A DNA stretch of 64,000 nucleotides, taken from Squalus acanthias. Lineage: Eukaryota. The notes beneath the pieces were generated by a model. It saw only the letters and a program-made list of their open reading frames with translations. It was not told the DNA's origin and did not search any database. How positions within the stretch are numbered: position 1 is the stretch's first letter; each line of letters opens with the position of its first letter. The position numbers and the translations under genes are program-made. Shown here one piece after another: positions 4,592 to 26,911 of the stretch. The DNA is taken from contig CM059431.1 in NCBI GenBank assembly GCA_030390025.1, positions 125,614,001 through 125,678,000 of the forward strand, in the 5' to 3' direction.

Positions 4592-4603
4592 GTCCCTCCT
4601 GTT
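4592..4603 (-). promoter_or_regulatory. Polypurine tract of the outer provirus (inner copy at 12641-12652)
   Basis: AACAGGAGGGAC immediately before the TGT of the 3' LTR. Confidence 0.85.
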
Positions 4604-5042
4604 GATGCGAATAACTCCGCTTATCGTATCAAAAATCATAGTGGTGAGCAATATTATCTCGATTTCTCTCCGAATCCAGTAAATTAATCCCATAATTTTA
4701 ACTTAGCTAGGGTCTCTGTGTCGTCCTCATTTCCCAAGAAAATTACATTTTATATCACCGTAGGCATTATTTGCCCTTAAACTTACACCACTTGTTTTCC
4801 TTCCCGGCGTAACCAGGCCGATGCCTCTCGTATCACCTGTATATTCATCTTTTATTCAGGGAAAGGAAAAACAAAACCCAAAACCAAACAATCATTTTTA
4901 ACTGTAACACCATCACCAAAATAAATCAACACCAACTCTTAAAACATGTCGAGTTCCCAACGTATTTACAATCTCTGAAAATCTTATATGAGTACAAACT
5001 TCCGCGGCGCACGCGGCGAGCGGGAGTGACGCCATTTTCCGA

Positions 5043-7396: not shown

Positions 7397-7709
7397 CCTT
7401 CCTTGGTTCCTGTGATCAGATAGAATGAGGTAGCCAGCCTCGCAAGAGTCTCTGGCTTCTGTGAAGGGTGAGCGGGTCCCCTGACCTCGCCTCACGTAAA
7501 CTTCCACGTTTGCTGTATAAACTTTTCACTAAACCTATCTTTAAAACTCCCATCATTTTATCGTTTTCTGTTAAAAACACTACAAACTTAACCTTATTAA
7601 AACTATAAACTTAACCTTGAACTATTAACTTAAAACTTAACCTTGAACTATAAACTTAAAACTTAAAACTTATTACTATACAGTGCCGCCCGTTCTCAGG
7701 GCGGCCCCT

Positions 7710-10700
7710 TTAAATTCTGAGAAGGCTGCTGCGAGCTCTTCCCGACGGTGGGAGGGCACTGACCCTTCCCTCTGATCTGCCGCAGCCTGTTACTGCTGCG
7801 ATGTGGCCGGTCTGTATCTGGGTTATCTTAACCTTAAATTTCCGCCTTGGGGCAGTCTGGGGACATGACCACATCCTCCTGGGCTGGGGTTCTCTACTTG
7901 ACCTACGGGGAGTTGCTATGGGCGGGGTTTCCGTGACGGACGGACCGGGTTCCGAGACTTCCATCGGGATGACCTGGGGTTCCATCACAGTCGCTGGCTC
8001 CGCCTCCGCTGACTCCGCCTCCCTAACCTCGGGGCTGGCAGTTCGTGGCTCCGCCCTGCTCGGCCCAGCAGGCGGCCCTTCACTCGTGATCTCTGCCTCC
8101 CCTGAGGACTGGACGTTCAAAGCGGGCGGCCACATCTCTGGGAGCCACACCGGTACTCTCTGTGCTCCCATAGCGGCTGGCCCTGCCTCCTCTAGCTCCT
8201 CCCTCCTGTCTTCGGGACCTGCAGCTCGTGTGTCCACCCTGTGTGGATCTCTACCTGCAGCCCCCGTCACCTCCATATCGTAAAAGGGACCGTTCCTCCG
8301 AAACCACCCGTCGTCATCACTATCCTCATCTGCACTATCCTCATCTGACCCGGGTACACCTGAATTCTTCCTCATCTAACCCCCAATTCCAGAAAAACGC
8401 TGCATGATCGTCCGGGATGTCCCTTCCCCTGATGCAAGCTGCTATGCCTGCCTGTGTGCCTTGTGGTCCTACCTGGGGCTGTGCTTTCCCATTGGCGGGA
8501 TTTACCCCTGTAGTTTTCCCCTGCACACCTGGCTGGTACAGTTTGCATTGGTTTATGTGGAACCACTTAGTGCGCCGTGGTACTTTTACGGCGTAAACCA
8601 TGGGACTCGCCTTGTCTACAATGTTGTAGGGTCCCATATACAGTGGTTCCAGACTCCCTACTCTGGCGTAATTTCTGACCATGACCTGGTCTCCTACTTC
8701 CCACTCCCGCGTTTTGCGGGGTTCCATCAACAAGCGATTGCCCTGATGCTGCCTTCCCATGTTCCCAGCCGCCTGCTCATAAACTTGCTTCAGGCGCTCC
8801 AAGAGAGTCTGGGCGAACTTGTCCCTGCTTATCTCCTGGAGCTGACCCTCAGTGAGCACCGGGGCTAGCACATGGGTGGGGGTTCGCATGAGCCTGCCGG
8901 TCATTACCTCGTGCGGGGAGTACCCCGTACTTTTTGACTGACTGGCCCGAACCCCCATGAGGACTAAAGGCAGAACTTCCGCCCATTTTTGGGGCGAGTT
9001 CCTAGTCTCTTTCCTCAATTTCTCCTTCAGGGTCCGGTTCATACGTTCAACAATCCCGGATGACTGGGGATTGTGTGCTACGTGCCACTTCCCTTCAATG
9101 CCCAAAAGCATGAGGGTGGTCTGCATCACCTGGCCGGTGAAATGACTCCCTTGGTCTGACTCCACAAAACGGGGGAGTCCCCACCGCGAGAACACTTCCC
9201 GGACCAAGATTTTTGCTGTACCCAGTGCCGTAGCTGTTCGACAAGGGAAGGCTTCCACCCACTTGGAAAACACATCCACCAGGACGAGGCAGTACTTATA
9301 ACCTCCCTGGGTGGTGGGCAGGGGTCCTATATAGTCGATCTGTATCGACTGCCATGGTCCCTCTACCCTTCTTACATGTCCCATGGGCACCTTCCTTTTC
9401 TGGGGGTCTGGGTTGTTTGCAGCGCACACAAGACAGTTTGCGCAGAACTCGCGGACTTGTTCCCTGAGCCCTGGCCACCATCCCGCTTGCTCTACCCGTT
9501 GCCAGGTAACCTCGGGCCCGGGGTGCCCTGCCCCTGGTCCCTCGTGAGCCAACTGGAGGAATTCCCTCCTGTGCTGCTGCGGCACAACCCACTGCTCCTC
9601 GCGGAACAGCATGCCTTCCTTAACTGAGAGGGTTGCCGTACTGTACGGACCTTCTACCTGCCTCCCCTCAGCAATCGTTTTTAGGACTGCTTTTCGGGCG
9701 GGATCCTGGGCTTGGACGGTCTTAAGGTCTAGGGGCAATGCTACCCTGGGGTTCCCGGGATTCCCGTCCCCGCCTCGGACCGCTGCTATGGGTCCGGTCC
9801 TATAGGGGTTCCAGAAAGTGCCGTCGCGGGCACCCTCCCTGGCTAGCGCATCCGCCTGCCGGTTGCCCTCCCCACGGGGCTCTGTGGAGGAGTGAGCTTT
9901 CACCTTATGGATGAAAATCTCTCCTTCCTCCCCTACTGCTGCTGCTAAGATCTTTTCCAGCAAGGGCTTCACCGTTAAAGGTCGCCCGTCCGCGGAGGTG
10001 TATCCGCGGCGGGACCAAATGGCCAGGTATTCCGTACACGAATTGCAGGTGAACATACTGTCCGAGCAAATCGTGTATGGGGTTGGAAAAATGTCTGGGT
10101 GGGTCACAACGTACACCACGGCAGACAGCTCAGCCTGCTGCGCGCTCATGGTGCTAGGGAGCTTGATCGCCAGGGCAAGGTCTGCCGCAGGGTCATAAAC
10201 TCCACACCCTGTGAGTCGCTCGCCAGCAGATACTGTGCTAGACCCATCAACATAAATCTCGCGCCCAGTGGGATGTATCCCGGCCCGTAAACCTATGTTG
10301 ACGTCCCACACCCCTTCCACCGAACACCGGTGGGCTGTACCGGGGTATACCAGATTGGCCGCAAGCCTTGGCTCGCAAAGACCTTTTACTCTAAGATCCA
10401 ACTGGGAGAGAAGAAGGGTCCAACGCGCAATGCGTGCGCTGCTTACGGTCCCGTCTTTAATCCTCCCATCCAGAAGCATCTTAGTTGGTGTGTGATGTGT
10501 GAGGAGAGTGATGGGAGAGAGCCCTGTGAAGATCGCTGATCTTTTCACAGCCCAATGCGTGGCTAAAAGGTGCCTTTCGCAATTGGAGAAACTTCTCTCC
10601 ACATCCGTTAATACCCTGGATGAATAGACAACCGGCCTCAGCTTGCCGTGACGCTCTTGGAGCAGCACGGCGCTTAAGCTGTCTCCGCTGGCAGCTACCT

Positions 10701-10911
10701 CCAGGAAAAACTCCTTCCCCCCATCTATGGCCCCTAAGGCTGGCGCGGTCTGCAGATCCCTTTTTAACTTCTCGAAGGCTGCTTGGCAGCCCTCGTCCCA
10801 AAGCCACTCCACCCCCTTATGGAGGAGTCGGAGGAGCGGCGCTGCTGTGGCCGCATAATCTTCGATAAAATCCCTGCAGTAACCGGTCAGTCCCAAGAAG
10901 GACCTCACACC
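7710..10911 (-). pseudogene. pol: 3' half of the outer pol (RT thumb, tether, RNase H, integrase, C-terminal extension with a 1-nt indel near 8355)
   Basis: RSFLGLTGYCR, YVDGSS...AQQAEL...SDS...GNRQAD, HHCC, IDYIG/SDQG/VERMN, GPY; interrupted at 10911 by the inner provirus. Confidence 0.95.
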
Positions 10912-12640
10912 TGTAAGGGATTCCTGACCCTGCGTGTCTCGCAGCCTGTGAGATTCACGCGGCTCTGTGCAGCCTGTATGTCAGTGCGGGTCTAGGCCTG
11001 GTTGCCTGTTCTGGTCTCCAGCCAGTCTGGGAACACTAGACACACCTGTGAGTGGTTCGAATCACTCTCCCTTACGGTTCTAGACACTGGACTTAGATGC
11101 GAGAGCAGTAATGGAGATAAAACTCATGTAGACTTGGTTTGAATGGTACGAAATGGAAAATCTTTATTGCATGATACTTAAAATTATGAAATACATGTCA
11201 TAAGCACAGATTAATGACAGTACAATCTTACAAACAGTTATATAGTCGATCTTAGGGAAACGAGGAACGAACGGCACAAAGTAAATAGGGGCACACATTA
11301 CAAATATCCTTAACCCTTAAACCCTCCCCTATCAATATCTATCCTAAACTAGCTTCGTAGGATCTCGAGACTCATGCTCACCACTCGTGATAACTCGGAG
11401 AAATTCCGAATAGCTGATCGGATGTTTTTCACCGCAGCACCCACGTGTCGGTCAGGAGATCTCCTGGTCCCACTTGTTTACTTGCTTCTGCTGCTCCGGC
11501 TAGTAGGCTGGACCGTCTGCTGTGATGAAGATCTCTGTTGGTTGGTTTCACGTACCAGTCAACACTTAAGAGAATAATCTCTCGGTGTCCGTCATGAGGA
11601 TCTGCCCTGATGGGTTTCACAGATCAGTCAATATCACAAAGGAGAATCTTCCGGGGTCCGTTCTTTAAAGTTCAAAGAAGTCTTCCTGGCAAGGAGAAAC
11701 TTGGCTGATCGACCTACAGGCGCGGTCGGGATTTACTGACCGTGGCGATGGATATGGTCTTCCTCTCTTCTCCTCTCATCTCATCTCATCTCATCTCATC
11801 TCGGGCCTTTGGTTCCGCTGCCAGTTACCAACATAGGTCTTCGTTACGCGACACGAGGTAGATCCGAACGGATCAGAAAGTTCAACAGTCTTTTCAGAAG
11901 AGGCAACGGGCAAGCAGAAGCCCAACTACGAGTACACAGGAGCAGCCACGAGGTTACGAATCGACCGGATAAAACACAGGAGCAAGCGAGCGAATGCAAG
12001 AGCAAGAAAGAGAATGGACGGTTTGGAGCCTGCAATTATAGTGCAAAAATCTTCCGTTTCCCGCCCAACTATAATGTCCATTCTTTTTTTTAGGGTTTGG
12101 CGCCCAAATGTCTTGTATGGGTGATCTCCGTTCTTAATGGGTTTCGGGGCTACTCATAAATGTCTGAGTGCCTGTTAATATTTCTCCCATTGTTAAATCG
12201 GTCGGTGTTCTCCCTGGAGGGGTTTGGGGCTTCCAAGTGTCCTGTATAACTACCTACTAACGGCTCTCTCATCGTAGAGTCGTTGGGATTTACATATTAA
12301 TGTCTTTTGGATGGGCCCTTGATTACTCGGTACAATGACTTTCCTTTGTACCTGGGAGACCGATTCCAGTATCTATGTTTATACTGCAAACCCATAATGT
12401 CTCGTGTATTATCTTCACTGTGCTGAATCGTAATCGATCTTGCACAAATGTTTATTGGAACGCCATCTTGTCTGCCTGTTGAAAAGTCTAGAATGTTCTG
12501 TCACGAGGTGCGGCGGCCATTTTACAGGCTGCTTGTGTCCAATTTAAACCTGCCAGCATTCTGCTGAAATAAAAGCTGTTTGAACGAAACTTTGTGTTCT
12601 CTCCTCATTAATCAAATCGCGATATATTGCGAATTCTACA
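10912..12640 (-). repeat. 3' LTR of the inner provirus (1729 bp)
   Basis: TG...CA ends; direct repeat of 22067-23795 with at least two substitutions seen by eye. Confidence 0.97.
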
Positions 12641-13087
12641 GTCCCTCCTGTTGATGCGAATAACTCCGCTTATCGCATCAAAAATCATAGTGGTGAGCAA
12701 TATTATCTCGATTTCTCTCCGAATCCAGTAAATTAATCCCATAATTTTTAACTTAGCTAGGGTCTCTGTGTCGTCCTTATTTCCCAAGAAAATCACATTT
12801 TATATCACCGTAGGCATTATTTGCCCTTAAACTTACACCACTTGTTTTCCTTCCCGGCGTAACCAGGCCGATACCTCTCGTATCACCTGTATATTTGTCT
12901 TTTATTCAGGGAAAGGAAAAAAAAAAACAAAACCCAAAACCAAACAATCAACACCATCACCAAAATAATCAAAACCCCAACTCTTAAAACATGTCGAGTT
13001 CCCAACGTATTTACAATCTCTGAAAATCTTATATGAGTACAAACTTCCGCGGCGCACGCGGCGAGCGGGAGTGACGCCATTTTCCGA

Positions 13088-15435
13088 TTACACGGTGCTC
13101 TCATCGTGCACGCGCACGTAACGTTCTCGCCACTCTCCCGTGTTTTCATGCTTGGTGAGGCGTTTGTCTCTTTTACAATGTATGACCAATAGGTACACTA
13201 CAATAAACACTTGACATACGACTAAAATGTGGGAGGCTATTCTGATCCATGAAGGCACTTCAATATTAGTGAACAGATTCCACCACGGTGGAACTACTAT
13301 GTCCAAAATGTCTGTTCCTATTTCGACAGTTTTCTGCTCTAATGTATAAAAATGTTTCTGTGATACCGCGACGGCTTTCAGAAGTTTGGTTAAGTGTTCA
13401 GGGAGAGGGGGAATGAGGTATCCAAAATGCGCGACAAATCGCTGCAAGTCGGTGAAATTCTCTTTTACTGTGAGATGAACAGTGGATGGTTCAGGGATTG
13501 GGATAATTCGCTGTTGTGCTACTTGAACTTCAGCCCTGGGTTTAAAACAGAAACTGCTGTCACTCACCGGACACCGGCTACGGTTTCCATGCTGGTAGTG
13601 TTGCGCTGCAGTGGTAACACAATATGTTCCACCCCCGATGTATGCTACCTGCGGAGGCACATGATCTTGTGCCATTGCCTCCATGGTGCAATTCATGGAC
13701 TTGGCGCCAGCCGTTCTGAACCCGCACTGTGGTGTTAAAAAGGCATTCAAGTGCTGGGGGCACAGTATTATGTGTGCTCCCCTGCCACGACAACCAGAGA
13801 GATCCGTACCTGTCATCGTTTGCTCCCAGCGGATGACGTAAGGTGGAACCGCTGCATAACGAATGTGGGCTCCCCCCTGAATGACACCAATGTTCTCTAC
13901 CCGATATACCGGGGCGGGCTTTGCTGTGTCGCCCAAAACCGGCATGCGTAATACTATTCCCATAATAGTATGGTTTGATCGTCCGCAGTCCACGGGGACT
14001 GGGTAAGCTTCTGAAGCTAGCCTGAGCTGGCACGGACTTAATGCGTTCTGAAAAGGGTGGAGCGCCCGTAGGTGTTTGTTACTTATCCAGGACGGAACCA
14101 AACCTTGTTTTAAATCCTCCAAATTACTGCGGCCCTCGCCCAGTAACCACGCCCCGTAAAGCACGCACACCTCGTTCTGCGCAGCTTGATCGGATGCATT
14201 CCGATCTTCCCTGATCAGGGCATTTACCGTACGCGCATGTTTCTCCAGCTCTGCTATAATTTCCTTTAAATGGAGAGTCATGGCTTGGTCCTCGTGTAGA
14301 CCTGACCCTACCACTTTATTCTCATCTGTTAGAATGTCTTTTAACTGTGTTTTTAAACCATTAATCTGGGTCTGCAGCTCCACACTGTCTAGAGCGTTGA
14401 CCACAGATGTCCCTGTGTTAAAAGCAGTGAACGCATCGTTCACCAAACCCCTTCTTTGCCTCCCTACTTGATCCAAAACTTCCTGCGGTGCGGTGTACAA
14501 ACTTGTCTTATCAATTTCTGCAAAATCAAACTCGTAAAATTGTCTGAACATCTTGGTCAACAGGACCTGATACAACTGTTCCGTCTTTTTGGGGCACCAC
14601 TCTGGTAACCGTACCTCAGTGAGATTTAAAATCACCGAGGCCACCGCGTAATGTACCCCCTGAAAGAGTATCTGGTCTGTGGGGACCAGTACCAAACCAT
14701 TCCCGGGTCCCTTACTAGTTTTAGGGCACCCTTCTTCCTCAGCTAGAACCACCGGAATCGTGGGCGGGGCTTTGCGTGGGCGCGTAATGAGCTCAGTGGC
14801 ATTTACTGGGATCGGGGAGAATGGGGCTCCGCACCCCCTGGTGCTCGCATCCCACCTCATCCCCTGTCCGTTATCCTGCCATTGATTAATAAAAAATATG
14901 GAGATGCCTTTGGGGCAAACGTACTTTGACCCCCACATACATACATAAATTCCCTCATCCGGTTCCCACCATTTGTCCCAACAGACTTTCACTTGTCCGT
15001 CTGTCCCCGTAATTGTCCGATGGGTATTATTACCCAGTCGTTCCCACTCGACCGAAGAGTTTCTCATAGTTTTGCTCAGCTTTCGCAGCCACCACCATCG
15101 GCTCAATGGGACCTTCCCACTACAAGTCAAACAAATCCGTTTGCCGACGGTGACGCTGATCCTGGGTGCGATGATCCTTTGGGGCACAGTAAAGAAGTCT
15201 CTTGGTAGGCAAACCCCGATGTGCTGGAATACTCCATTGAGTTCGTTCCCAGCCATCCTGGCCACCTTCCCTTGTGGAAATAGGTGCTGGTCCCCTCTGC
15301 CTTCCGTCTTCCGGTCCCATCCACCGCGATGGGGGCCGTGTCCCCGGAACATCCAAACACCACGACATCCTTGGTGTGGCCTCGATAGGCCAATCCACAT
15401 CCGATTGCCACGAGCAATACTAGAATTCGTTCCAT
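13088..15435 (-). pseudogene. env: env of the inner provirus; 4-nt deletion near 15177 disconnects the signal peptide
   Basis: ATG of MERILVLL at 15435; ATCCT----TTGGGG versus ATCCTCACTTTGGGG in the outer copy; the rest is open to the stop at 13088. Confidence 0.9.
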
Positions 15436-15726
15436 CCTTCCTTGGTTCCTGTGATCAGATAGAATGAGGTAGCCAGCCTCGCAAGAGTCTCTGGCTTTTG
15501 TGAAGGGTGAGCGGGTCCCCTGACCTCGCCTCACGTAAACTTCAACGTTTGCTGAATAAACTTCCTCTAAACCTAACCTTAAAAACTCCCATCATTTATC
15601 GTTTTCTGTTAAAAACACTACAAACTTAGCCTTATTAAAACTATAAACTTATTCTTAACCTTAAACTATAAACTTAAAACTTAACCTTGTTACTATACAG
15701 TGCCGCCCGTTCTCAGGGCGGCCCCT

Positions 15727-18700
15727 TTAAATTCTGAGAAGGCTGCTGCGAGCTCTTCCCGACGGTGGGAGGGCGCTGACCCTTCCCTCTGATCTGCCGC
15801 AGCCTGTTGCTGCGCTGACCCTTCCCTCTGATCTGCCGCAGCCTGTTACTGCTGCGATGTGGCCGGTCTGTACCCGGGTTATCTTAACCTGAAGTCTACG
15901 CCTTGGGGCAGTCTGGGGACATGACCACATCCTCCTGGGCTGGGGTTCTCTACTTGACCTACGGGGAGTTGCTATGGGCGGGGGTTCCGTGACGGACGGA
16001 CCGGGTTCCGAGACCTCCAACGGGATGACCTGGGGTTCCATCACAGTCGCCGGCTCCGCCTCCGCTGACTCCGCCTCCCTAACCTCGGGGCTTGCAGTTC
16101 GTGGCTCCGCCCTGCTCGGCCCAGCAAGCGGCCCTTCACTCGTGATCTCTGCCTCCCCTGAGGACTGGACGTTCAAAGCGGGCGGCCACATCTCTGGGAG
16201 CCACATCGGTACTCTCTGTGCTCCTATAGCGGCTGGCCCTGCCTCCTCTAGCTCCTCCCTCCTGTCCTCGGGACCTGCAGCTTGTGTGTCCACCCTGTGT
16301 GGATCTCTACCTATAGGCCCCATTCCCCCCAGACCGTTCCTCAGGAACCACCCGTCATCATCACTATGCTCATCTGCACTATCCTCATCTGACCAGGGTA
16401 CCCTGGGTTCTTCCTCATCTAACCCCCAACTCCAGAAAAACGCTGCATGATCGTCCGGGATGTCCCTTCCCCTGATGCAAGCTGCTATGCCTGCCTGTGT
16501 GCCTTGTGGTCCTACCTGGGGCTGTGCTTTCCCATTGGCGGGATTTACCCCTGTAGTTTTCCCCTGCGCACCCGGCTGGTACAGCTTGCATTGGTTTATG
16601 TGGAACCACTTAGTGCGCCGAGGTACTTTTACGGCGTAAACCATGGGACTCGCCTTGTCTACAATGTTGTAGGGTCCCATATACAGTGGTTCCAGACTCC
16701 CTACTCTGGCGTAGTTTCTGACCATGACCTGGTCTCCTACTTCCCACTCCCGCGTTTTGCGGGGTTCCAGCAATAAGCGATTGCCCTGATGCTGCCTTCC
16801 CATGTTCCCAGCCGCCTGCTCATAAACTTGCTTCAGGCGCTCCAAGAGAGTCTGGGCGAACTTGTCCCTGCTTATCTCTTGGAGCTGACCCTCAGTGAGC
16901 ACCGGGGCTAGCACATGGGTGGGGGTTCGCATGAGCCTGCCGGTCATTACCTCGTGCGGGGAGTACCCCGTACTTATTGACTGACTGGCCCGGACCCCCA
17001 TGAGGACTAAAGGCAGAACTTCCGCCCATTTTTGGGGCGAGTTCCTAGTCTCTTTCCTCAATTTCTCCTTCAGGGTCCGGTTCATACGTTCAACAATCCC
17101 GGATGACTGGGGATTGTGTGCTACGTGCCACTTCCCTTCAATGCCCAAAAGCATGAGGGTGTTCTGCATCACCTGGCCGGTGAAATGACTCCCTTGGTCT
17201 GACTCCACAAAACGGGGGAGTCCCCACCGCGAGAACACTTCCCGGACCAAGATTTTTGCTGTACCCAGTGCCGTAGCTGTTCGACAAGGGAAGGCTTCCA
17301 CCCACTTGGAAAACACATCCACCAGGACGAGGCAGTACTTATAACCTCCCTGGGTGGTGGGCAGGGGTCCTATATAGTCGATCTGTATCGACTGCCATGG
17401 TCCCTCTACCCTTCTTACGTGTCCCATGGGCACCTTCCTTTTCTGGGGGTCTGGGTTGTTTGCAGCGCACACAAGACAGTTTGCACAGAACTCGCGGACT
17501 TGTTCCCTGAGCCCTGGCCACCATCCCGCTTGCTCTACCCGTTGCCAGGTAACCTCGGGCCCGGGGTGCCCTGCCCCTGGTCCCTCGTGAGCCAACTGGA
17601 GGAATTCCCTCCTGTGCTGCTGCGGCACAACCCACTGCTCCTCGCGGAACAGCATGCCTTCCTTAACGGAGAGGGTTGCCGTACTGTACGGACCTTCTAC
17701 CTGCCTCCCCTCAGCAATCGTTTTTAGGACTGCTTTTAGGGCGGGATCCTGGGCTTGGACGGTCTTGAGGTCTAGGGGCAATGCTACCCTGGTGTTCCCG
17801 GTATTCCCGTCCCCGCCTCGGACCGCTGCTATGGGTCCGGTCCTGTAGGGGTTCCAGAAAGTGCCGTCGCGGGCACCCTCCCTGGCTAGCGCATCCGCCT
17901 GCCGGTTGCCCTCCCCACGGGGCTCTGTGGAGGAGTGAGCTTTCACCTTATGGATGAAAATCTCTCCTTCCTCCCCTACTGCTGCTGCTAAGATCTTTTC
18001 CAGCAAGGGCTTCACCGTTAAAGGTCGCCCGTCCGCGGAGGTGTATCCGCGGCGGGACCAAATGGCCAGGTATTCCGTACACGAATTGCAGGTGAACATA
18101 CTGTCCGAGCAAATCGTGTATGGGGTTGGGAAAATGTCTGGGTGGGTCACAACGTACACCACGGCAGACAGCTCAGCCTGCTGCGCGCTCATGGTGCTAG
18201 GGAGCTTGATCGCCAGGGCAAGGTCTGCCGCAGGGTCATAAACTCCACACCCTGTGAGTCGCTCGCCAGCAGACACTGTGCTAGACCCATCAACATAAAT
18301 CTCGCGCCCAGTGGGATGTATCCCGGCCCGTAAACCTATGTTGACGTCCCACACCCCTTCCACCGAACACCGGTGGGCTGTACCGGGGTATACCAAATTG
18401 GCCGCAAGCCTGGGCTCGCAAAGACCTTTTACTCTAAGATCCAACTGGGAGAGAAGAAGGGTCCAACGCGCAATGCGTGCGCTGCTTACGGTCCCGTCTT
18501 TAATCCTCCCATCCAGAAGCATCTTAGTTGGTGTGTGATGTGTGAGGAGAGTGATGGGAGAGAGCCCTGTGAAGATCGCTGATCTTTTCACAGCCCAATG
18601 CGTGGCTAAAAGGTGCCTTTCGCAATTGGAGAAACTTCTCTCCACATCCGTTAATACCCTGGATGAATAGACAACCGGCCTCAGCTTGCCGTGACGCTCT

Positions 18701-20250
18701 TGGAGCAGCACGGCGCTTAAGCTGTCTCCGCTGGCAGCTACCTCCAGGAAAAACTCCTTCCCCCCATCTATGGCCCCTAAGGCTGGCGCGGTCTGCAGAT
18801 CCCTTTTTAACTTCTCGAAGGCTGCTTGGCAGCCCTCGTCCCAAAGCCACTCCACCCCCTTATGGAGGAGTCGGAGGAGCGGCGCCGCTGTGGCCGCATA
18901 ATCTTCGATAAAATCCCTGCAGTAACCGGTCAGTCCCAAGAAGGACCTCACACCCCTTACGTTGTTGGGAATCGGTAATTCTTGCACCGACTCCCTCCTT
19001 GCTTTGTCTATGGCTCTTTCCCCAGCGCGTATGGTCAGTCCCAGGAATTTTACTTCCCGCTGACCGATACGTGCTTTCTTAGGATTTATTTTAAAACCCT
19101 TTCTCGCTAACAGTTCCAATAACTCGTCCAGTAGTGGTCCGTGCTCCTCCCTTGAGTCCGTAAATAGGAGCAAATCATCCACATACTGTACTATCTGATT
19201 GGGCTGACTAAACTCCCTTAAACTTCCTGCCATACACTGATGAAAAATACTGGGGCTATTGTGGAAACCCTGTGGCAGACAGTTCCACGTGTACTGTTGC
19301 CCTTTGAAAGTAAAGGCAAACTTGTACTGGTCCTCTCGCCGCAGCGGGATGGACCAAAAACCGTTCGAGATATCCAGCACCGTGAACGTGGTCGCGGACG
19401 CTGGGATGCTCCCTATTAGGTCAGCAACTGCTGCTACTGTGGGCGCGCAGGCGGGAATGTTACTGTTAAGGACTCTGTAGTCCACCGTGGCTCTCCACGA
19501 ATTATCCGGCTTCCTAACCGGCCATAATGGGGAGTTCACGTGTGTGGCTATCGGCCTTAACACGCCCTGCTGCACCAAGGAAGACATTGCTGTCTCCATA
19601 TCGGGTTCTGCTTCTTTGGGGAAGTTATACTGCTTTTGGGGTCGGGTCATGGGGTCCCCATCTACGCTGACCTCAAACCCGACCACTCTCCCACAATCGT
19701 GCTTGTGGGTTGCAAACGCGTGCATATTATCTGACACGTACGTTTGCATGTCCGTTGGGACATCTGCGACCATAAGCCTGAGGTCGTAGCCTCCGGATGG
19801 CTGTACGGTACACAGGACCCCTGTTTCTTCCTCCCCCGGAATCACTATTACCTCGCCTTTTTCACCTTTAGCCCCCCAGAGACAGTGATTTCTGAGGTCC
19901 ACGAGGATCCCGTGTCCCGCTAGGAGATCGGACCCGAGAATACCTCTTCCACCCCCCTTTTGCCATGCCATCAGTATACACTTCCACTTAAGGCGAAGTG
20001 TTCCTAAACGAATGGATAGCGGAAGGGAAAACGTGCCAGCCTGTTCTTTTCCTGTGAACCCTGCCAACGTGAATGGGACCTTGGTAGATAGCGGCGAGTC
20101 AAAAGGGTCATCTGTATGGATTATGGTGCAAGAAGCTCCCGTGTCCAACAAATAACTGCCCTTCTGTTTCTCTACCTCCATCTCCACCACAGGTCGCCTC
20201 CACGCATCATAGCTAAGCGGACACAGGTAGACGGGCTGTGCTGGTTCTAG
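15727..20250 (-). CDS. pol: Pol polyprotein (PR-RT-tether-RNase H-IN plus a long acidic/Pro-rich tail), in frame with gag after one UGA
   Basis: LLDTGAS/ILGSD protease; LDISNGFW, LPQGFHNSP, YVDD RT; degenerate first RNase H (LEVAASG); second RNase H (YVDGSS); HHCC-DDE-GPY integrase; no internal stops. Confidence 0.96.
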   Translation of the reverse strand, partial: LEPAQPVYLCPLSYDAWRRPVVEMEVEKQKGSYLLDTGASCTIIHTDDPFDSPLSTKVPFTLAGFTGKEQAGTFSLPLSIRLGTLRLKWKCILMAWQKGGGRGILGSDLLAGHGILVDLRNHCLWGAKGEKGEVIVIPGEEETGVLCTVQPSGGYDLRLMVADVPTDMQTYVSDNMHAFATHKHDCGRVVGFEVSVDGDPMTRPQKQYNFPKEAEPDMETAMSSLVQQGVLRPIATHVNSPLWPVRKPDNSWRATVDYRVLNSNIPACAPTVAAVADLIGSIPASATTFTVLDISNGFWSIPLRREDQYKFAFTFKGQQYTWNCLPQGFHNSPSIFHQCMAGSLREFSQPNQIVQYVDDLLLFTDSREEHGPLLDELLELLARKGFKINPKKARIGQREVKFLGLTIRAGERAIDKARRESVQELPIPNNVRGVRSFLGLTGYCRDFIEDYAATAAPLLRLLHKGVEWLWDEGCQAAFEKLKRDLQTAPALGAIDGGKEFFLEVAASGDSLSAVLLQERHGKLRPVVYSSRVLTDVERSFSNCERHLLATHWAVKRSAIFTGLSPITLLTHHTPTKMLLDGRIKDGTVSSARIARWTLLLSQLDLRVKGLCEPRLAANLVYPGTAHRCSVEGVWDVNIGLRAGIHPTGREIYVDGSSTVSAGERLTGCGVYDPAADLALAIKLPSTMSAQQAELSAVVYVVTHPDIFPTPYTICSDSMFTCNSCTEYLAIWSRRGYTSADGRPLTVKPLLEKILAAAVGEEGEIFIHKVKAHSSTEPRGEGNRQADALAREGARDGTFWNPYRTGPIAAVRGGDGNTGNTRVALPLDLKTVQAQDPALKAVLKTIAEGRQVEGPYSTATLSVKEGMLFREEQWVVPQQHRREFLQLAHEGPGAGHPGPEVTWQRVEQAGWWPGLREQVREFCANCLVCAANNPDPQKRKVPMGHVRRVEGPWQSIQIDYIGPLPTTQGGYKYCLVLVDVFSKWVEAFPCRTATALGTAKILVREVFSRWGLPRFVESDQGSHFTGQVMQNTLMLLGIEGKWHVAHNPQSSGIVERMNRTLKEKLRKETRNSPQKWAEVLPLVLMGVRASQSISTGYSPHEVMTGRLMRTPTHVLAPVLTEGQLQEISRDKFAQTLLERLKQVYEQAAGNMGRQHQGNRLLLEPRKTREWEVGDQVMVRNYARVGSLEPLYMGPYNIVDKASPMVYAVKVPRRTKWFHINQCKLYQPGAQGKTTGVNPANGKAQPQVGPQGTQAGIAACIRGRDIPDDHAAFFWSWGLDEEEPRVPWSDEDSADEHSDDDGWFLRNGLGGMGPIGRDPHRVDTQAAGPEDRREELEEAGPAAIGAQRVPMWLPEMWPPALNVQSSGEAEITSEGPLAGPSRAEPRTASPEVREAESAEAEPATVMEPQVIPLEVSEPGPSVTEPPPIATPRRSSREPQPRRMWSCPQTAPRRRLQVKITRVQTGHIAAVTGCGRSEGRVSAATGCGRSEGRVSALPPSGRARSSLLRI

Positions 20251-22062
20251 TCATGGGGCACTATTAGACGGTCCTGCGGCACCTACGGGGCCGGTTGCGA
20301 CCGCCACCTGTCCACGCGCATTCAAGACTAGCTTGCGCATGGCTCCTAACACTGCTTCGAGGTCGTCGGGAGGGGTGGGTGCCTTGGCTTCCTTAGCCGG
20401 GACAGGCGCCTGGGCTCGGACCGCGGGATTTTTATCCTTGGAATCCTTCCAAGGGTTCCTGCAATGCTTGCGCCAGTGCCCTGTCTTCCCACACCCGTAA
20501 CAAGCATTACCTGCCTGTGGGGCGCGATTACCCTCCTGATGCCACTCTCTTTGATACGGGGCTGCGGGTCGTACCTCATGTATTCTTCCCTTAAAGGGAC
20601 GTGTCGTCATACCCCTTATATTACGATAACCTAACGTGAGTCGATTCAAGACCGACTCTTCCGTAAGGTTGAGGTCATTGGGATCAAACCATGCTTTTGC
20701 CTGCTCTCTAACGGCTGGTAAACTGTTGGCTATTATGCACCTAAGCCAATGAGTTAAAGCGGCGCCTTCCACATCTTCGCGCTCGGGCGCACCTAGACAG
20801 CTGCGCTCATATACTGGCCACAGCCTGTCGGCAAAAACCTTCGGGGGTTCTCCCTCCATCTGCACTGTCTGTCCCACTCTAGCAAACGGACCTCCGTCGT
20901 TCGCCCCCAACACTTCTAGGACCTCATTCTTTAATTCCTCATAACTCTTGTTTCCCCTCTTGCTCTCGCCTGAGAGACACTGAAGGACCGAGCTGTCTAA
21001 TGAGAACAGCAGCATTTTTGCTGTCTCCCCATCATCGCAGCCGTTAATGGCTGCGGCTTGCTCAACTTCTCTGAAATGTACGGAAGGGTCGTCTATCTCG
21101 GTCAGCTTCCGTACGTGATTTATCATAGCTCTCAGCTGATGTGAACTGTGAGGCAACACCAGCTGTCCGAGGAGATCCCCCGGTTCTTCCCCACCGTTTC
21201 TGCTTGGGCCCCTTTTAATACCCGTTACTGGATACAGCGATCCCTTTTCTACTTCCTTTTCAATGGGCTCTTTTGTTTCTTCCATTGCTTCCTCCCTAAC
21301 CCAGGTTTCTGAATAGCTGGGTGGCGCGGAGGGCGCAGTGGCTACTACTTCTTCTGCTTTACTTGGTGGGGATTTTCTAAATCTCTCATTTACTAGCGGC
21401 TGGTGCGCCGACGGATTGATAAGGCACACCATGCCGTTCGCATTGTTCACGGCCTTTTTGAGGTTCTCTATCTCCCTTTGGCAGGCGCTATGGTCGGCTC
21501 CCTGAAACTTATCCTCAAGGGCCAACTTATATGCCGACCTAACCCCCATTAAGCTCTCTTCTTGAGTTCTTATCTGGGCAGCTTGGCGGTTACATCTTTC
21601 CTTTAACCTGCTCTCATTCAATTTTGCCTCAGTGACCTGGCACTCGAGATAATCTATCCTTGTTTTAAGGTGACTGGAGACTTCCTGGCTTTCCTGGTGT
21701 AACTCATTTAAATTCTTAATGAGCACCTCCCCTCCAGAAACCTTCTCCTCCATTTCTCCCTCTAAATGACTGATTCGAGCTACTAGCGCTGTAATGGTCT
21801 GGTTTGAAATCTGAACCTGCCTTTTGTAGCACATAAGCCAGACTGCTTTCTCAAGTGTCTTTCTATGTTCTTTACTATCTGTCCACCTTTCAGCTGCCTC
21901 TAGTGGGCTCTTATCCGCTAACAATTCACTTATCCATTTCTTAGTTAGATTAACCTTTCCAAACACATAATCCGCTATCTTTTCCTGCATAACATTTCGT
22001 ACAGTCATTCCAAAATCTAACACACTACCCTCTCGCTGCCAGTGTCCTGCCGCGGTCGCCAT
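20251..22062 (-). CDS. gag: Gag polyprotein, 603 aa (inner provirus)
   Basis: Coiled-coil-like N-half, PSAPPSY late motif, capsid-like helical region, single CCHC knuckle CYGCGKTGHWRKHC; first ATG at 22062. Confidence 0.93.
   Translation of the reverse strand: MATAAGHWQREGSVLDFGMTVRNVMQEKIADYVFGKVNLTKKWISELLADKSPLEAAERWTDSKEHRKTLEKAVWLMCYKRQVQISNQTITALVARISHLEGEMEEKVSGGEVLIKNLNELHQESQEVSSHLKTRIDYLECQVTEAKLNESRLKERCNRQAAQIRTQEESLMGVRSAYKLALEDKFQGADHSACQREIENLKKAVNNANGMVCLINPSAHQPLVNERFRKSPPSKAEEVVATAPSAPPSYSETWVREEAMEETKEPIEKEVEKGSLYPVTGIKRGPSRNGGEEPGDLLGQLVLPHSSHQLRAMINHVRKLTEIDDPSVHFREVEQAAAINGCDDGETAKMLLFSLDSSVLQCLSGESKRGNKSYEELKNEVLEVLGANDGGPFARVGQTVQMEGEPPKVFADRLWPVYERSCLGAPEREDVEGAALTHWLRCIIANSLPAVREQAKAWFDPNDLNLTEESVLNRLTLGYRNIRGMTTRPFKGRIHEVRPAAPYQREWHQEGNRAPQAGNACYGCGKTGHWRKHCRNPWKDSKDKNPAVRAQAPVPAKEAKAPTPPDDLEAVLGAMRKLVLNARGQVAVATGPVGAAGPSNSAP
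22044..22061 (-). promoter_or_regulatory. Primer-binding site of the inner provirus, tRNA-Ser-like
   Basis: TGGCGACCGCGGCAGGAC, 5 nt after the LTR-terminal CA; TGGCG...GCAGGA resembles the complement of vertebrate tRNA-Ser 3' ends (recalled, not searched). Confidence 0.7.
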
Positions 22063-22066
22063 TTTC

Positions 22067-23795
22067 TGTAAGGGATTCCTGACCCTGCGTGTCTCGCAGC
22101 CTGTGAGATTCACGCGGCTCTGTGCAGCCTGTATGTCAGTGCGGGTCTAGGCCTGGTTGCCTGTTCTGGTCTCCAGCCAGTCTGGGAACACTAGACACAC
22201 CTGTGAGTGGTTCGAATCACTCTCCCTTACGGTTCTAGACACTGGACTTAGATGCGAGAGCAGTAATGGAGATAAAACTCATGTAGACTTGGTTTGAATG
22301 GTACGAAATGGAAAATCTTTATTGCATGATACTTAAAATTATGAAATACATGTCATAAGCACAGATTAATGACAGTACAATCTTACAAACAGTTATATAG
22401 TCGATCTTAGGGAAACGAGGAACGAACGGCACAAAGTAAATAGGGGCACACATTACAAATATCCTTAACCCTTAAACCCTCCCCTATCAATATCTATCCT
22501 AAACTAGCTTCGTAGGATCTCGAGACTCATGCTCACCACTCGTGATAACTCGGAGAAATTCCGAATAGCTGATCGGATGTTTTTCACCGCAGCACCCACG
22601 TGTCGGTCAGGAGATCTCCTGGTCCCACTTGTTTACTTGCTTCTGCTGCTCTGGCTAGTAGGCTGGACCGTCTGCTGTGATGAAGATCTCTGTTGGTTGG
22701 TTTCACGTACCAGTCAACACTTAAGAGAATAATCTCTCGGTGTCCGTCATGAGGATCTGCCCTGATGGGTTTCACAGATCAGTCAATATCACAAAGGAGA
22801 ATCTTCCGGGGTCCGTTCTTTAAAGTTCAAAGAAGTCTTCCTGGCAAGGAGAAACTTGGCTGATCGACCTACAGGCGCGGTCGGGATTTACTGACCGTGG
22901 CGATGGATATGGTCTTCCTCTCTTCTCCTCTCATCTCATCTCATCTCATCTCATCTCGGGCCTTTGGTTCCGCTGCCAGTTACCAACATAGGTCTTCGTT
23001 ACGCGACACGAGGTAGATCCGAACGGATCAGAAAGTTCAACAGTCTTTTCAGAAGAGGCAACGGGCAAGCAGAAGCCCAACTACGAGTACACAGGAGCAG
23101 CCACGAGGTTACGAATCGACCGGATAAAACACAGGAGCAAGCGAGCGAATGCAAGAGCAAGAAAGAGAATGGACGGTTTGGAGCCTGCAATTATAGTGCA
23201 AAAATCTTCCGTTTCCCGCCCAACTATAATGTCCATTCTTTTTTTTAGGGTTTGGCGCCCAAATGTCTTGTATGGGTGATCTCCGTTCTTAATGGGTTTC
23301 GGGGCTACTCATAAATGTCTGAGTGCCTGTTAATATTTCTCCCATTGTTAAATCGGTCGGTGTTCTCCCTGGAGGGGTTTGGGGCTTCCAAGTGTCCTGT
23401 ATAACTACCTGCTAACGGCTCTCTCATCGTAGAGTCGTTGGGATTTACATATTAATGTCTTTTGGATGGGCCCTTGATTACTCGGTACAATGACTTTCCT
23501 TTGTACCTGGGAGACCGATTCCAGTATCTATGTTTATACTGCAAACCCATAATGTCTCGTGTATTATCTTCACTGTGCTGAATCGTAATCGATCTTGCAC
23601 AAATGTTTATTGGAACGCCATCTTGTCTGCCTGTTGAAAAGTCTAGAATGTTCTGTCACGAGGTGCGGCGGCCATTTTACAGGCTGCTTGTGTCCAATTT
23701 AAACCTGCCAGCATTCTGCTGAAATAAAAGCTGTTTGAACGAAACTTTGTGTTCTCTCCTCATTAATCAAATCGCGATATATTGCGAATTCTACA
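22067..23795 (-). repeat. 5' LTR of the inner provirus (1729 bp)
   Basis: Direct repeat of 10912-12640, followed by PBS and gag. Confidence 0.97.
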
Positions 23796-25095
23796 CACCC
23801 CTTACGTTGTTGGGAATCGGTAATTCTTGCACCGACTCCCTCCTTGCTTTGTCTATGGCTCTTTCCCCAGCGCGTATGGTCAGTCCCAGGAATTTTACTT
23901 CCCGCTGACCGATACGTGCTTTCTTAGGGTTTATTTTAAAACCCTTTCTCGCTAACAGCTCCAATAACTCGTCCAGTAGTGGTCCGTGCTCCTCCCTTGA
24001 GTCCGTAAATAGGAGCAAATCATCCACATACTGTACTATCTGATTGGGCTGACTAAACTCCTTTAAACTTCCTGCCATACACTGATGAAAAATACTGGGG
24101 CTATTGTGGAAACCCTGTGGCAGACAGTTCCATGTGTACTGTTGTCCTTTGAAAGTAAAGGCAAACTTGTACTGGTCCTCTCGCCGCAGCGGGATGGACC
24201 AAAAACCGTTCGAGATATCCAGCACCGTGAACGTGGTCGCGGACGCTGGGATGCTCCCTATTAGGTCAGCAACTGCTGCTACTGTGGGCGCGCAGGCGGG
24301 AATGTTACTGTTAAGGACTCTGTAGTCCACCGTGGCCCTCCACGAATTATCCGGCTTCCTAACCGGCCATAATGGGGAGTTCACGTGTGTGGCTATTGGC
24401 CTCAACACGCCCTGCTGCACCAGGGAGGACATTGCTGTCTCCATATCGGGTTCTGCTTCTTTGGGGAAGTTATACTGCTTTTGGGGTCGGGTCATGGGGT
24501 CCCCATCTACGCTGACCTCAAACCCGACCACTCTCCCACAATCGTGCTTGTGGGTTGCAAACGCGTGCATATTATCTGACACGTACGTTTGCATGTCCGT
24601 TGGGACATCTGCGACCATAAGCCTGAGGTCGTAGCCTCCGGATGGCTGTACGGTACACAGGACCCCTGTTTCTTCCTCCCCCGGAATCACTACTACCTCG
24701 CCTTTTTCACCTTTAGCCCCCCAGAGACAGTGATTTCTGAGGTCCACGAGGATCCCGTGTCCCGCTAGGAGATCGGACCCGAGAATACCTCTTCCACCCC
24801 CCTTTTGCCATGCCATCAGTATACACTTCCACTTAAGGCGAAGTGTTCCTAAACGAATGGATAGCGGAAGGGAAAACGTGCCAGCCTGTTCTTTTCCTGT
24901 GAACCCTGCTAACGTGAATGGGACCTTGGTAGATAGCGGCGAGTCAAAAGGGTTATCTGTATGGATTATGGTGCAAGAAGCTCCCGTGTCCAACAAATAA
25001 CTACCCTTCTGTTTCTCTACCTCCATCTCCACCACAGGTCGCCTCCACGCATCATAGCTAAGCGGACACAGGTAGACGGGCTGCGCTGGTTCTAG
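23796..25095 (-). pseudogene. pol: 5' half of the outer pol (protease and RT palm), cut by the nested insertion
   Basis: LLDTGAS, YVDD; ends at NNVRGV and continues as RSFLG at 10908. Confidence 0.95.
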
Positions 25096-26907: not shown

Positions 26908-26911
26908 TTTC

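Follow-up and report, generated by a model that had tools for sequence, protein, structure and literature searches.

A young, probably SnRV-clade endogenous retrovirus with a predicted F-protein-like envelope, nested in another copy of its own family

We find that the provirus at positions 10912-23795 of the window (the whole 64,000-nucleotide stretch of Squalus acanthias DNA that was analysed) is probably, at a probability of about 0.8, an endogenous member of the Retroviridae from the clade of snakehead retrovirus (SnRV) that inserted recently into pol of an older family member. This clade, called 'Huo' (Xu et al. 2018, PMC6001957), was known before from cartilaginous fish, amphibians and other vertebrates (PMC6001957, PMC4422223) and contains CmiERV lineage I of the elephant shark (Han 2015, PMC4422223); the provirus is a new, strikingly active member of it. 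The ends of the provirus, and the copy that surrounds it, are as follows:

10912-23795, minus strand: whole provirus, 12,884 bp
10908-10911, unstranded: target-site duplication CACC, left copy (identical 4 bases at both ends)
23796-23799, unstranded: target-site duplication CACC, right copy (identical 4 bases at both ends)
10912-12640, minus strand: 3' LTR (element sense), 1,729 bp, TG..CA ends
22067-23795, minus strand: 5' LTR (element sense), from sequence comparison of the LTR pair
12641-12652, minus strand: polypurine tract, a purine-rich run adjoining the first TG of the LTR, read from the sequence
22044-22061, minus strand: primer-binding site, pairing with the 3' end of the host's tRNA-Arg(TCG)
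2915-10911, minus strand: outer copy, 3' part, with LTR 2915-4591, env, and pol as far as the insertion point
23796-28588, minus strand: outer copy, 5' part, with remaining pol, open gag and 5' LTR 26911-28588

The provirus thus has the features of Retroviridae proviruses: that is, LTRs with TG..CA ends, a short target-site duplication, a tRNA primer-binding site and a polypurine tract. At the uninterrupted equivalent site in the element's own pol (about 18949-18954), CACC is present once. The LTRs carry, in element sense, TATATAA at LTR position 1397 and AATAAA at position 1473. The tRNA 3'-end pattern has 435 matches in the genome vs. 0 for a control pattern, and ARAGORN reports tRNA-Arg(tcg) at all three loci scanned. 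The gag ATG overlaps the primer-binding site. The surrounding copy, of the same family, is 95.8-97.8% identical to the nested copy, has an env break at a different place and a frame-shifted pol tail, and shows 0 differences in 1,678 positions between its LTRs; no clean 4 bp duplication was found for it, its flanks sharing only 3 bases by comparison with a paralogous LINE copy. This nesting was absent from the observations of the original prediction. Because the LTR pair of the provirus shows 2 differences in 1,730 positions compared, and because the provirus is nested in another young copy, we conclude that it is very young, and the earlier description of it as near-intact and very young stands.

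The gag and pol genes have the following parts:

20254-22062, minus strand: gag, 603 aa, open
21322-21333, minus strand: PSAP sequence motif in gag
21313-21324, minus strand: PPSY sequence motif in gag
20461-20502, minus strand: single CCHC knuckle in gag, a sequence motif
20251-20253, minus strand: gag stop TGA, followed by CTA, in frame with pol (read-through arrangement)
15730-20250, minus strand: pol, 1,507 aa, open
19918-20202, minus strand: PR (Pfam)
19030-19518, minus strand: RT (Pfam)
18445-18843, minus strand: tether (degenerate RNase H; Pfam RT_RNaseH_2/RT_RNaseH, E 2e-21)
17872-18303, minus strand: RNase H (Pfam RNase_H, E 2.1e-19)
17110-17628, minus strand: IN (Pfam)
16579-16707, minus strand: SH3-like domain of pol (Pfam)
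15730-16548, minus strand: pol tail, 273 aa, of no known family, without a match in the reference set

The length of the provirus and the absence of stops from gag and pol agree with the prediction of a 12.9 kb element with both genes open. The predicted YVDD of RT is at pol residue 356, and the predicted dual RNase H is present, with the tether preceding RNase H. A dual RNase H of this kind, tether plus RNase H, is common to all retroviruses. With gag, pro-pol containing RT, tether, added RNase H and integrase, and env, the gene set of the Retroviridae is complete. Gag has a long N-terminal coiled coil. In the Gag model (pLDDT 49), the segment 304-391 resembles capsid domains of PEG10, dArc1 and copia (Z 8.4-7.7), though spurious coiled-coil matches reach the same Z, and Foldseek returns no match at E<=0.001; a capsid-like fold in Gag is hinted at by this low-confidence model.

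The RT places the provirus beside SnRV. In a maximum-likelihood tree of 49 RT+tether rows, the element and its relatives from shark/skate, frog and coelacanth form a clade (98/86), and this clade is sister to SnRV (97/87), which lies on a long branch (1.4) and to which overall Pol identity is only 32%. The SnRV row of the tree is a genome of 10,688 nt, the length stated for SnRV GenBank U26458.1 in a passage of PMC12193657, and in its RT every letter agrees with the SnRV row of the PMC7947760 supplement. Searches with the RT core (phmmer) give, outside the element's own clade, 222 bits for SnRV, 180 for foamy virus, 177 for gammaretrovirus and 122 for Ty3/gypsy. In the alignments of the PMC7947760 supplement, the only rows with the RT words LPQGFH and LDISNGFWS are those of SnRV, three for each word. 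The closest env, pol and gag relatives of the element (50-87% identity) are, among those named, from skate, sawshark and sharks, which makes a cartilaginous-fish host probable, as the prediction had it. The retroviruses, including this element, are split from 11 Ty3/gypsy rows at 100/100, which places the RT outside the Metaviridae and, with the added RNase H, speaks against an env-bearing Ty3/gypsy element (errantivirus-like, Odin).

The original prediction had made the provirus lokiretrovirus-like. Lokiretroviruses are a lineage sister to all other retroviruses and are recognised by where their RT falls, by a dual RNase H, by an F-like Env and by an integrase of the GIN1 kind. We regard an assignment to them as very improbable. 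It draws on the dual RNase H and the F-like predicted Env fold, on the integrase, which scores best against the Ty3/gypsy type and shares SD.GSHFT and PQSSG.VER with lokiretroviral IN rows, and on hosts, in that frog and coelacanth, which harbour relatives of the element, also carry lokiretroviruses. Lokiretroviruses (PMC7947760) likewise combine dual RNase H with an F-type Env that is anchored in the membrane and has a basic cleavage site, a fusion peptide and a coiled coil, and in some hosts they, too, have very young copies; their integrase is Ty3/gypsy-like (GIN1-like), and that of the provirus may be so as well. However, lokiretroviral RTs read RCPFGY (71 occurrences in lokiretroviral sequences of the PMC7947760 supplement) where the provirus reads LPQGFH, and belong to another RT lineage; the provirus has no smc-like gene; and lokiretroviruses were recorded in 0 of the cartilaginous-fish genomes screened (PMC7947760 supplement). 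Since the tree was built without lokiretroviruses (and without epsilonretroviruses (WDSV/WEHV), fish foamy-like ERVs, and alpha- and deltaretroviruses), the exclusion rests on these motifs and on the published position of SnRV. The RT falls within neither Ty3/gypsy nor the spumaviruses, and the Env is F-like, as the prediction expected, yet the data favour a third lineage: the retroviral LPQGF motif of the RT, words matched in that supplement only by SnRV rows, and an RT clade sister to SnRV argue against the lokiretroviral assignment itself.

The integrase is not SnRV-like. In a comparison set without CGIN1 or lokiretroviral IN, and with its own clade left aside, it scores highest with Ty3/gypsy (187 bits), next with a class-I-like genome (180 bits), and only 129 bits with SnRV, and for this reason Pol may be a mosaic. 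The provirus resembles SnRV in several ways: SnRV, too, has gag and pol in one frame across a stop codon and a Gag with a coiled coil at its N terminus and a single CCHC knuckle, and in neither virus does Gag or Env match a Pfam family. The provirus differs from SnRV in having 1.7 kb LTRs and a copy number in the thousands, in an Env of about 783 aa from the ATG vs. a 1,134-aa frame, and in lacking the 3' accessory frame of SnRV; the primer-binding site of the provirus has 0 matches in SnRV at up to 3 mismatches.

A foamy-like element (a class III, spumavirus-related ERV of cartilaginous fish) would be a quite different placement, and one that we hold to be highly unlikely. Foamy-like ERVs are on record, by name, from sharks, frogs and coelacanth (PMC7947760 supplement), and an AU test of the clade joined to foamy viruses instead of SnRV gives p 0.051, so that this topology is not clearly rejected. 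In the free tree, however, the nine foamy RTs form a separate 100/100 clade, and Pfam Gag_spuma and Foamy_virus_ENV, which are present in 9/9 foamy genomes scanned, are absent here. The CCHC knuckle of Gag and the one-frame read-through into pol constitute an orthoretroviral, as opposed to foamy, expression pattern. The CoEFV row has the foamy motifs YVDDIY and LPQGFLNSPALF, whereas the element's coelacanth relative P0055 is without them. A class I ERV, whether epsilon-like or not, would belong to the kind most often met in fish and amphibians and would account for the equal gag-stop-pol read-through layout and the similar size (12.9 kb), and in searches of PDB sequences the best RT match is class I (MLV/XMRV RT, 2.4e-70), ahead of foamy PR-RT (2e-63 to 3e-58), Ty3 (4.4e-42) and HIV (about 1e-15). 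But the class I rows (five gamma, genomes of 10,207 nt and 10,305 nt, and four ERV proteins) form a separate 98/92 clade in a tree without WDSV/WEHV, and MLVIN_C and TLV_coat, present in class I genomes, are absent in the window. We consider a class I origin extremely unlikely.

The envelope comprises the following features:

13088-15435, minus strand: env, with ATG at 15435-15433, a signal-peptide-like start and stop at 13090-13088
14450-14461, minus strand: putative furin-type cleavage motif RQRR, Env residues 239-242
13454-14707, minus strand: Env core with predicted paramyxo/pneumovirus-F-like fold, model residues 157-574
13175-13249, minus strand: Env membrane anchor, residues 643-667, hydropathy maximum at 646-650

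There is one frame break about 85 codons into env (near 15,18x), followed by a 695-residue open stretch, and because of this break a full-length Env is impossible for this copy. The env stretch is 2,367 nt here vs. 2,371 nt in 35 of 40 top-ranking genomic copies, and the open frame is 788 aa here vs. at least 827 aa in 60 of 64 scored genomic copies, the 64 and 40 being the best of 12,729 and 3,853 candidates, respectively. With gag and pol open, coding capacity is thus short by a single env defect, as had been proposed. The expected Env motifs are also in place. Downstream of RQRR come a segment resembling a fusion peptide and a long helical stretch (helices 245-288 and 294-356 of the model), then a cysteine block (DLSGC...NC, residues 458-496) and, after the anchor, a 28-residue tail. 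No adjacent Cys pair was found in Env, which therefore lacks the CX6CC motif, in agreement with the prediction.

The AlphaFold model of Env (mean pLDDT 66, pTM 0.48; best modelled at 150-220 and 330-560) has the predicted domain arrangement of an F-type ectodomain. Foldseek gives 231 PDB matches at E<=0.001, all of them, among the matches listed, paramyxo/pneumovirus F, the best being hPIV3 F (E 1.3e-10). In VIA-align, the first 41 places all go to F proteins (Z 11.5-8.5), led by Nipah virus F (Z 11.5; 292 residues at rmsd 5.2), and foamy Envs reach Z 8.4 and 8.2. Matches in BFVD include mononegaviral glycoproteins, baculovirus F and F0, and the predicted Env structures of WEHV-1 (E 1.2e-12) and WDSV (E 3.9e-9). 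The order of elements is that of F proteins: a small N-terminal strand segment comes ahead of the furin-type site, and behind the site are the fusion peptide, a long heptad helix, a head rich in beta structure, a second helix and the anchor in the membrane. The results thus uphold, for a predicted model, the claim of an F-protein-like Env. The gene counterpart here sits in a retrovirus, sequence identity to F proteins is 9-15%, and the provirus Env has about 230 extra N-terminal residues with a possible role in receptor binding, whereas F proteins use a separate attachment protein. In this N-terminal region, modelled at pLDDT 28-64, there are leads to an Ig-like domain: weak Ig_3 or V-set matches in 2 of 40 members, a Fab light chain match at E 1.7 (Env phmmer vs. 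PDB sequences), and one Env relative entered in UniRef as 'Ig-like domain-containing'. As a further lead, the top score in the ESM Atlas (0.83) is to an unnamed chordate cluster.

The predicted likeness of Env to F proteins is at the level of fold, with no sequence match to PF00523 (F0). A search for PF00523 is negative for the Env of the provirus even at E 10, and for 22 Env relatives and 40 family members at 0.1, whereas Loki-Str Env matches it at 2.2e-7 (PMC7947760), a further point against a lokiretrovirus. The same applies to the distribution of Env relatives: an exhaustive search found 48, and of 10 looked up, those named are from sharks, frogs and coelacanth, with no ray-finned fish. 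One chimeric Env relative has a weak Baculo_F match (E 0.0011). Env searched directly against PDB sequences by phmmer gives nothing meaningful (best E 1.6); an Env profile has foamy virus gp130 as its top match among PDB sequences (E 0.0068), and hhalign gives 82.8% over 95 columns with foamy Env, both of which speak for the foamy-like placement. Foamy Env, F-like in solved structures (gp130; 8RM0, 8RM1; PMC11468914), shares the F-type core of the fusion machinery, but its leader-peptide architecture is absent from the provirus Env. With SnRV Env, hhalign gives 88.7% (E 2.6e-6, 270 columns) vs. only E 0.049 for pairwise BLASTP, and Env may be remotely homologous to SnRV Env.

Because foamy Env is also F-like, and because the Env model also matches the predicted WEHV-1/WDSV Envs, a match that counts as envelope evidence for an epsilon-like element, dual RNase H plus F-like Env is not exclusive to lokiretroviruses, and the combination is insufficient for an assignment to them; the SnRV-clade placement corrects that misassignment. 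By the Env model, the SnRV clade would be a third retroviral lineage with a paramyxovirus-F Env architecture, beyond lokiretroviruses and foamy viruses, and the BFVD matches hint at epsilonretroviruses as a fourth. A full-text search, judged by title, found no paper linking the Env of SnRV or walleye retroviruses to F proteins. The result bears on the origin of retroviral envelopes and on the subclasses of class I fusion proteins, for which a split into two has been proposed (PMC11468914).

The family is large and young. In the 3.7-Gb genome, LTR-internal junctions have 3,019 matches at the 5' side and 3,125 at the 3' side, with 0 for controls, corresponding to about 3,000 copies with internal sequence. 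LTR pairs diverge by 0-0.53% in nine of ten sampled copies, all from one contig, and all seven evaluable other copies have perfect 4-bp duplications. Of 84 junctions on the 5' side, 40 have a partner at the full-length distance and 12 at the pol-deleted distance, the latter a recurrent derivative in which gag and env frames stay open. The genome-wide copy search points to recent activity: with about 3,000 copies, near-identical LTR pairs and an env that is mostly open among the best-matching copies, the family looks recently and perhaps currently active. With about 3,000 junctions, of which some half are full-length going by the paired sample, the family is unusually large and young for an env-bearing retrovirus. 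It offers a natural setting in which to study how, in a genome that evolves slowly, an enveloped retrovirus attains the copy numbers of a retrotransposon.

Taking the standard retroviral cycle as a guide to expression, read-through, cleavage, fusion activity and mode of spread, we infer how an SnRV-clade element of this layout (in element sense, LTR, primer-binding site for tRNA-Arg(TCG), gag, TGA, pro-pol, env, polypurine tract, LTR) would work. Transcription would start in the 5' LTR, suppression of the TGA stop would yield Gag and Gag-Pol from one frame, tRNA-Arg would prime reverse transcription, and integrase would insert the DNA with a 4-bp duplication. Cleavage at RQRR would separate a receptor-binding N-terminal part of Env from a membrane-anchored fusion part, and since the core is predicted to have an F-type fold, it would be expected to rearrange about a long coiled coil at its centre and so bring about membrane fusion. 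The pol-less gag-env derivative would be mobilised in trans.

We suggest, tentatively and as less likely than not, that an F-type Env is ancestral to the early-branching retroviruses (SnRV clade, foamy viruses, lokiretroviruses and perhaps epsilonretroviruses), that the gamma- and beta-type Envs replaced it later, and that invasion of the germline through env-dependent reinfection is ongoing here. If so, this would be a living F-type-Env retrovirus with more than a thousand full-length copies plus pol-less gag-env riders. An alternative for the mode of spread, possible but in our view doubtful, is that the family spreads mainly as an intracellular retrotransposon, with env playing no part. A copy number in the thousands is more typical of retrotransposon-like ERVs than of infection, and the element has inserted into a copy of itself. 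Among the sequencing runs listed as containing the element, none is recorded as RNA; two runs presumed to be RNA cover all 30 bins and show no splice joints among those listed. Against this, env is open in 60 of the 64 scored copies, albeit a sample biased toward the best, the deletion derivative drops pol yet keeps gag and env open, and gag carries PSAP and PPSY budding motifs. Open env, a gag-env derivative and budding motifs are what would be expected if budding and entry still matter.

Comparison of the window with itself reveals four copies of one LTR (2914-4591, 10911-12640, 22066-23795, and 26911-28588). The features defined by these copies, all on the minus strand, are as follows.

10912-23795, minus strand: nested provirus (nested copy), 12,884 bp, TG..CA ends, with the inner LTR pair as boundaries
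22061-22044, minus strand: PBS of the nested copy, 18 nt, located by sequence five bases after the 5' LTR (element sense)
2915-10911 and 23796-28588, minus strand: outer copy, a provirus of the same family, 95.8-98.3% identical to the nested copy

The nested copy has the 4-bp duplication CACC on both flanks, has LTRs that differ at 2 of 1,730 positions compared, and has all of its genes on the minus strand. The gag ATG (22062) overlaps the PBS, a purine-rich tract adjoins the 3' LTR, and TATATAA and AATAAA lie ~76 nt apart near the LTR 3' end. The PBS complement combined with the T-loop consensus gives 435 matches in the host genome vs. 0 for a control pattern, and ARAGORN calls tRNA-Arg(TCG) at all three loci scanned among these matches. 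Host tRNA-Arg(TCG) genes, each paired with tRNA-Ser(GCT), recur every ~1,623 bp in long tandem arrays (loci L047-L051, contig C26, ~39.0-41.9 Mb). The nested copy is inserted in pol of the outer copy, at the equivalent of nested-copy positions 18949-18954. The LTR pair of the outer copy is identical (0 differences in 1,678), its env is broken elsewhere than that of the nested copy, and its pol tail is frame-shifted. The outer copy itself sits within a LINE-like reverse-transcriptase gene (flanks 2422-2914 and 28589-29680; 450-aa frame at 28556-29908), for which an inverted, uninterrupted paralogue 31 kb away (60405-61986; 99.6-100% identical) supplies the 'empty site'. Judged against the empty-site paralogue, the two flanks of the outer provirus have only 3 bases in common, the norm for the family being 4.

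The gag frame of the nested copy is open (603 aa) and encodes a protein with PSAP, PPSY, one CCHC knuckle, and, by prediction, a long coiled coil at the N terminus; it ends with TGA followed by CTA, and the same frame runs on into an open pol of 1,507 aa. Pfam identifies in Pol a retroviral protease, RVT_1 (3.4e-36), an RT-linked degenerate RNase H (2e-21), a second RNase_H (2.1e-19), integrase zinc and core domains, and, weakly, a Tf2-type SH3 domain. No Pfam family is found in Gag or Env at E<=0.01, and the structure model of Gag is poor. Env starts with a signal-peptide-like sequence (MERILVLLVAIGCGLA), changes frame ~85 codons in, and is then open for 695 residues. In this stretch, RQRR precedes a segment of mild hydrophobicity, a long helix and a second one lie on either side of a beta region rich in cysteines, and a membrane anchor with a 28-residue tail completes the protein; there are nine N-X-S/T sites, and CX6CC is absent. 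Frames, Pfam domains, and motifs bear out the gene layout of the original prediction (open gag and pol, two RNase H, RQRR, a Cys-rich region, a membrane anchor, no CX6CC), and the two LTR differences and the one env frame break agree with its description of the provirus as near-intact and recent. We conclude that, apart from one break, the retroviral gene set of the nested provirus is complete. The C-terminal 273 residues of pol (15730-16548) belong to no known family and match nothing in the retroviral and Ty3/gypsy reference set. The same pol tail is kept in a pol-deleted gag-env derivative of the family, as a 382-393-aa frame fused behind the gag stop (loci L072 and L073), and may serve a separate accessory function. 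Close to its end, the pol tail of the nested copy has a tandem duplication of 13 residues that is absent from the outer copy.

The original prediction also held that Env resembles the fusion (F) proteins of paramyxoviruses and pneumoviruses. We aligned the unaltered 695 open residues with 39 natural relatives and predicted the structure, obtaining a model of middling quality (mean pLDDT 66) whose well-modelled parts are residues 150-220 and 330-560. Foldseek returns 231 PDB matches at E<=0.001, and those listed are all paramyxovirus or pneumovirus F proteins, the best being hPIV3 F (E 1.3e-10). In VIA-align, ranks 1-41 are all F proteins, headed by post-fusion Nipah virus F (Z 11.5, rmsd 5.2, 292 residues, model range 157-574), and foamy virus Env occupies ranks 42 and 48 (Z 8.4 and 8.2). 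Among BFVD predicted viral structures, the top matches include glycoproteins of insect and fish mononegaviruses, WEHV-1 Env (1.2e-12), WDSV Env (3.9e-9), baculovirus F proteins, F0 proteins, and feline foamy virus gp130. The Pfam fusion glycoprotein F0 family, PF00523, was not found in the window Env or its scanned relatives. These matches, taken with the result for PF00523, indicate that the predicted likeness holds for fold and not for sequence, and we conclude that the F-like character of the nested provirus Env is supported at the level of the predicted fold. Because the WEHV-1 and WDSV models are among the best structural matches, the Env of these epsilonretroviruses may also be of F type; in the literature searched, we found no link between F proteins and the Env of walleye viruses or of viruses of the snakehead retrovirus (SnRV) type. 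The N-terminal part of the open stretch (residues 1-95; 14900-15175) carries an immunoglobulin-V-like pattern, VTVGKRICLTC ... W ... DEGIYVC, and SnRV Env has similar Y.CMW words; Ig matches occur in only 2 of 40 Env relatives, model confidence is low there, and support for an Ig-like region is weak.

The original prediction assigned the element to a lokiretrovirus-like lineage, lokiretroviruses being defined, in PMC7947760, by RT position, dual RNase H, F-like Env, and GIN1-like integrase. We looked up exact words of the window and its relatives in the accessible supplement of that paper, from which parts of data sets may be missing. There, the window RT words LDISNGFWS and LPQGFH each occur at least three times, in every case in SnRV rows, and lokiretroviral RTs have RCPFGY at the LPQGFH site (at least 71 occurrences). 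A degenerate DNA pattern for LDISNGFWS retrieved one viral contig (L013; 10,688 nt), which we take as SnRV; its RT is identical to the SnRV row of that accessible supplement, and its length equals that stated for the GenBank SnRV record in PMC12193657. Reference genomes were typed by Pfam (9 gamma, 9 foamy, 4 lenti, 5 beta, and two class-I-like, of 10,207 and 10,305 nt), and an RT-plus-tether maximum-likelihood tree (49 rows, 434 columns) was built with five of the nine gamma genomes and with named ERV and Ty3/gypsy proteins, its scope being retroviruses other than lokiretroviral, epsilonretroviral, and fish foamy-like sequences. The tree splits retroviruses from Ty3/gypsy at 100/100, groups the window RT with six relatives at 98/86 (an 87%-identical protein, three frog, one coelacanth, and one other), and places this clade as sister to SnRV, itself on a long branch, at 97/87. 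With RT words that match SnRV rows and not RCPFGY in the accessible supplement, and an RT clade sister to SnRV, lokiretrovirus identity is disfavoured. For the alternative of a clade with foamy viruses, the AU test gives a borderline p of 0.051; foamy motifs are present in the row for the coelacanth foamy virus and absent from the coelacanth relative of the element.

Membership of the SnRV clade accords with further likenesses: SnRV too has gag, stop, and pol in a single frame, and Gag and Env without any Pfam family. A profile of the Env family aligns with SnRV Env in 270 columns (88.7%, E 2.6e-6); with a foamy Env it aligns in 95 (82.8%). The Env relatives that carry a species name belong to a skate (76%), a sawshark (68%), three sharks, three frogs, and the coelacanth, and the top named Gag relative is from the same skate (50%). 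Three papers already record the SnRV clade from all vertebrate classes, including cartilaginous fish ('Huo', PMC6001957; CmiERV lineage I, PMC4422223; PMC12193657), and the accessible supplement of PMC7947760 records no lokiretrovirus in the cartilaginous fishes screened. A cartilaginous fish is the probable host, and the element is in all likelihood of a known kind, the SnRV-clade ERVs of cartilaginous fish. Outside the element's own clade, SnRV gives the best RT score (222 bits), but the integrase scores 187 bits with Ty3/gypsy, 180 with a class-I-like genome, and only 129 with SnRV, and therefore pol, judged by sequence, may be mosaic; PMC7947760 argues for mosaic pol in retroviruses in general.

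The genome-wide search proposed in the original prediction (3.71 Gb, 3,882 contigs) yielded ~3,000 junction matches: 3,019 for a 25-nt word at the 5' LTR/PBS junction with at most 1 mismatch and 3,125 for a word at the PPT/3' LTR junction, with 0 for each control. Pairing was done on 84 5' and 98 3' matches listed for the first 122 Mb of one contig; 40 of these 84 5' junctions pair at 9.25-9.44 kb (full length), 12 at ~6.03-6.09 kb, and 10 at other distances, and 22 are unpaired. Two fetched copies of the 6-kb form retain gag and the pol tail through env, are missing PR-RT-RNase H-IN, and have open frames (gag, 607 aa; env, 850 and 815 aa). We dated LTR pairs in ten copies taken in coordinate order from one contig (six full-length, four deleted): nine have 0 to 9 differences in 1,625-1,732 sites (0-0.53%), and the tenth has 97% identity and many gaps. 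Between these copies, LTRs are 87-98% identical and 1,625-1,735 long; since LTRs diverge between copies while pairs are near-identical, several subfamilies are young simultaneously. Perfect 4-bp target duplications flank seven of seven evaluable family copies. The best 64 of 12,729 env candidates, a best-scoring and hence biased rather than random sample, are all stop-free over residues 1-695, and 60 have frames of at least 827 aa (nested copy, 788 aa). The predicted 4-nt env deficit is likewise seen, 35 of the 40 best-scoring env DNA matches spanning 2,371 nt and the nested copy 2,367. With t = d/2u and 2 differences in 1,730, the nested copy would be ~0.26 Myr old at a mammalian rate and ~2.6 Myr old at the ten-fold slower elephant shark rate assumed by Han (PMC4422223). 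From 57% to 76% of the internal-region words sampled are present in 20 public runs (9 studies, six organism labels; none recorded as RNA), and in contigs of four public runs (three labels) each of the 30 bins of the internal region is covered at >=95%; together these indicate near-identical copies in several labelled organisms. A family of such size and youth appears to be new.

By analogy with the retroviral cycle, transcription would be driven by the LTR, suppression of the TGA would yield Gag-Pol, and tRNA-Arg would prime reverse transcription. By analogy also with F proteins, furin would cleave Env at RQRR, refolding of the F-type core would drive membrane fusion, and the ~230 N-terminal residues preceding that core are a candidate receptor-binding part. 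Late-domain motifs in Gag, env frames that are open, and a derivative that keeps gag and env are in keeping with spread by particles and re-entry, and the copy number fits intracellular amplification; we consider env-dependent spread somewhat the likelier.

Elsewhere in the window, 58141-58536 (400 bp) resembles part of the LTR at ~80% identity and is probably what remains of an older element related to the provirus family. Direct repeats unrelated to the provirus lie at 49362-50613 vs. 51979-54486 (230 and 640 bp, ~79% identity).
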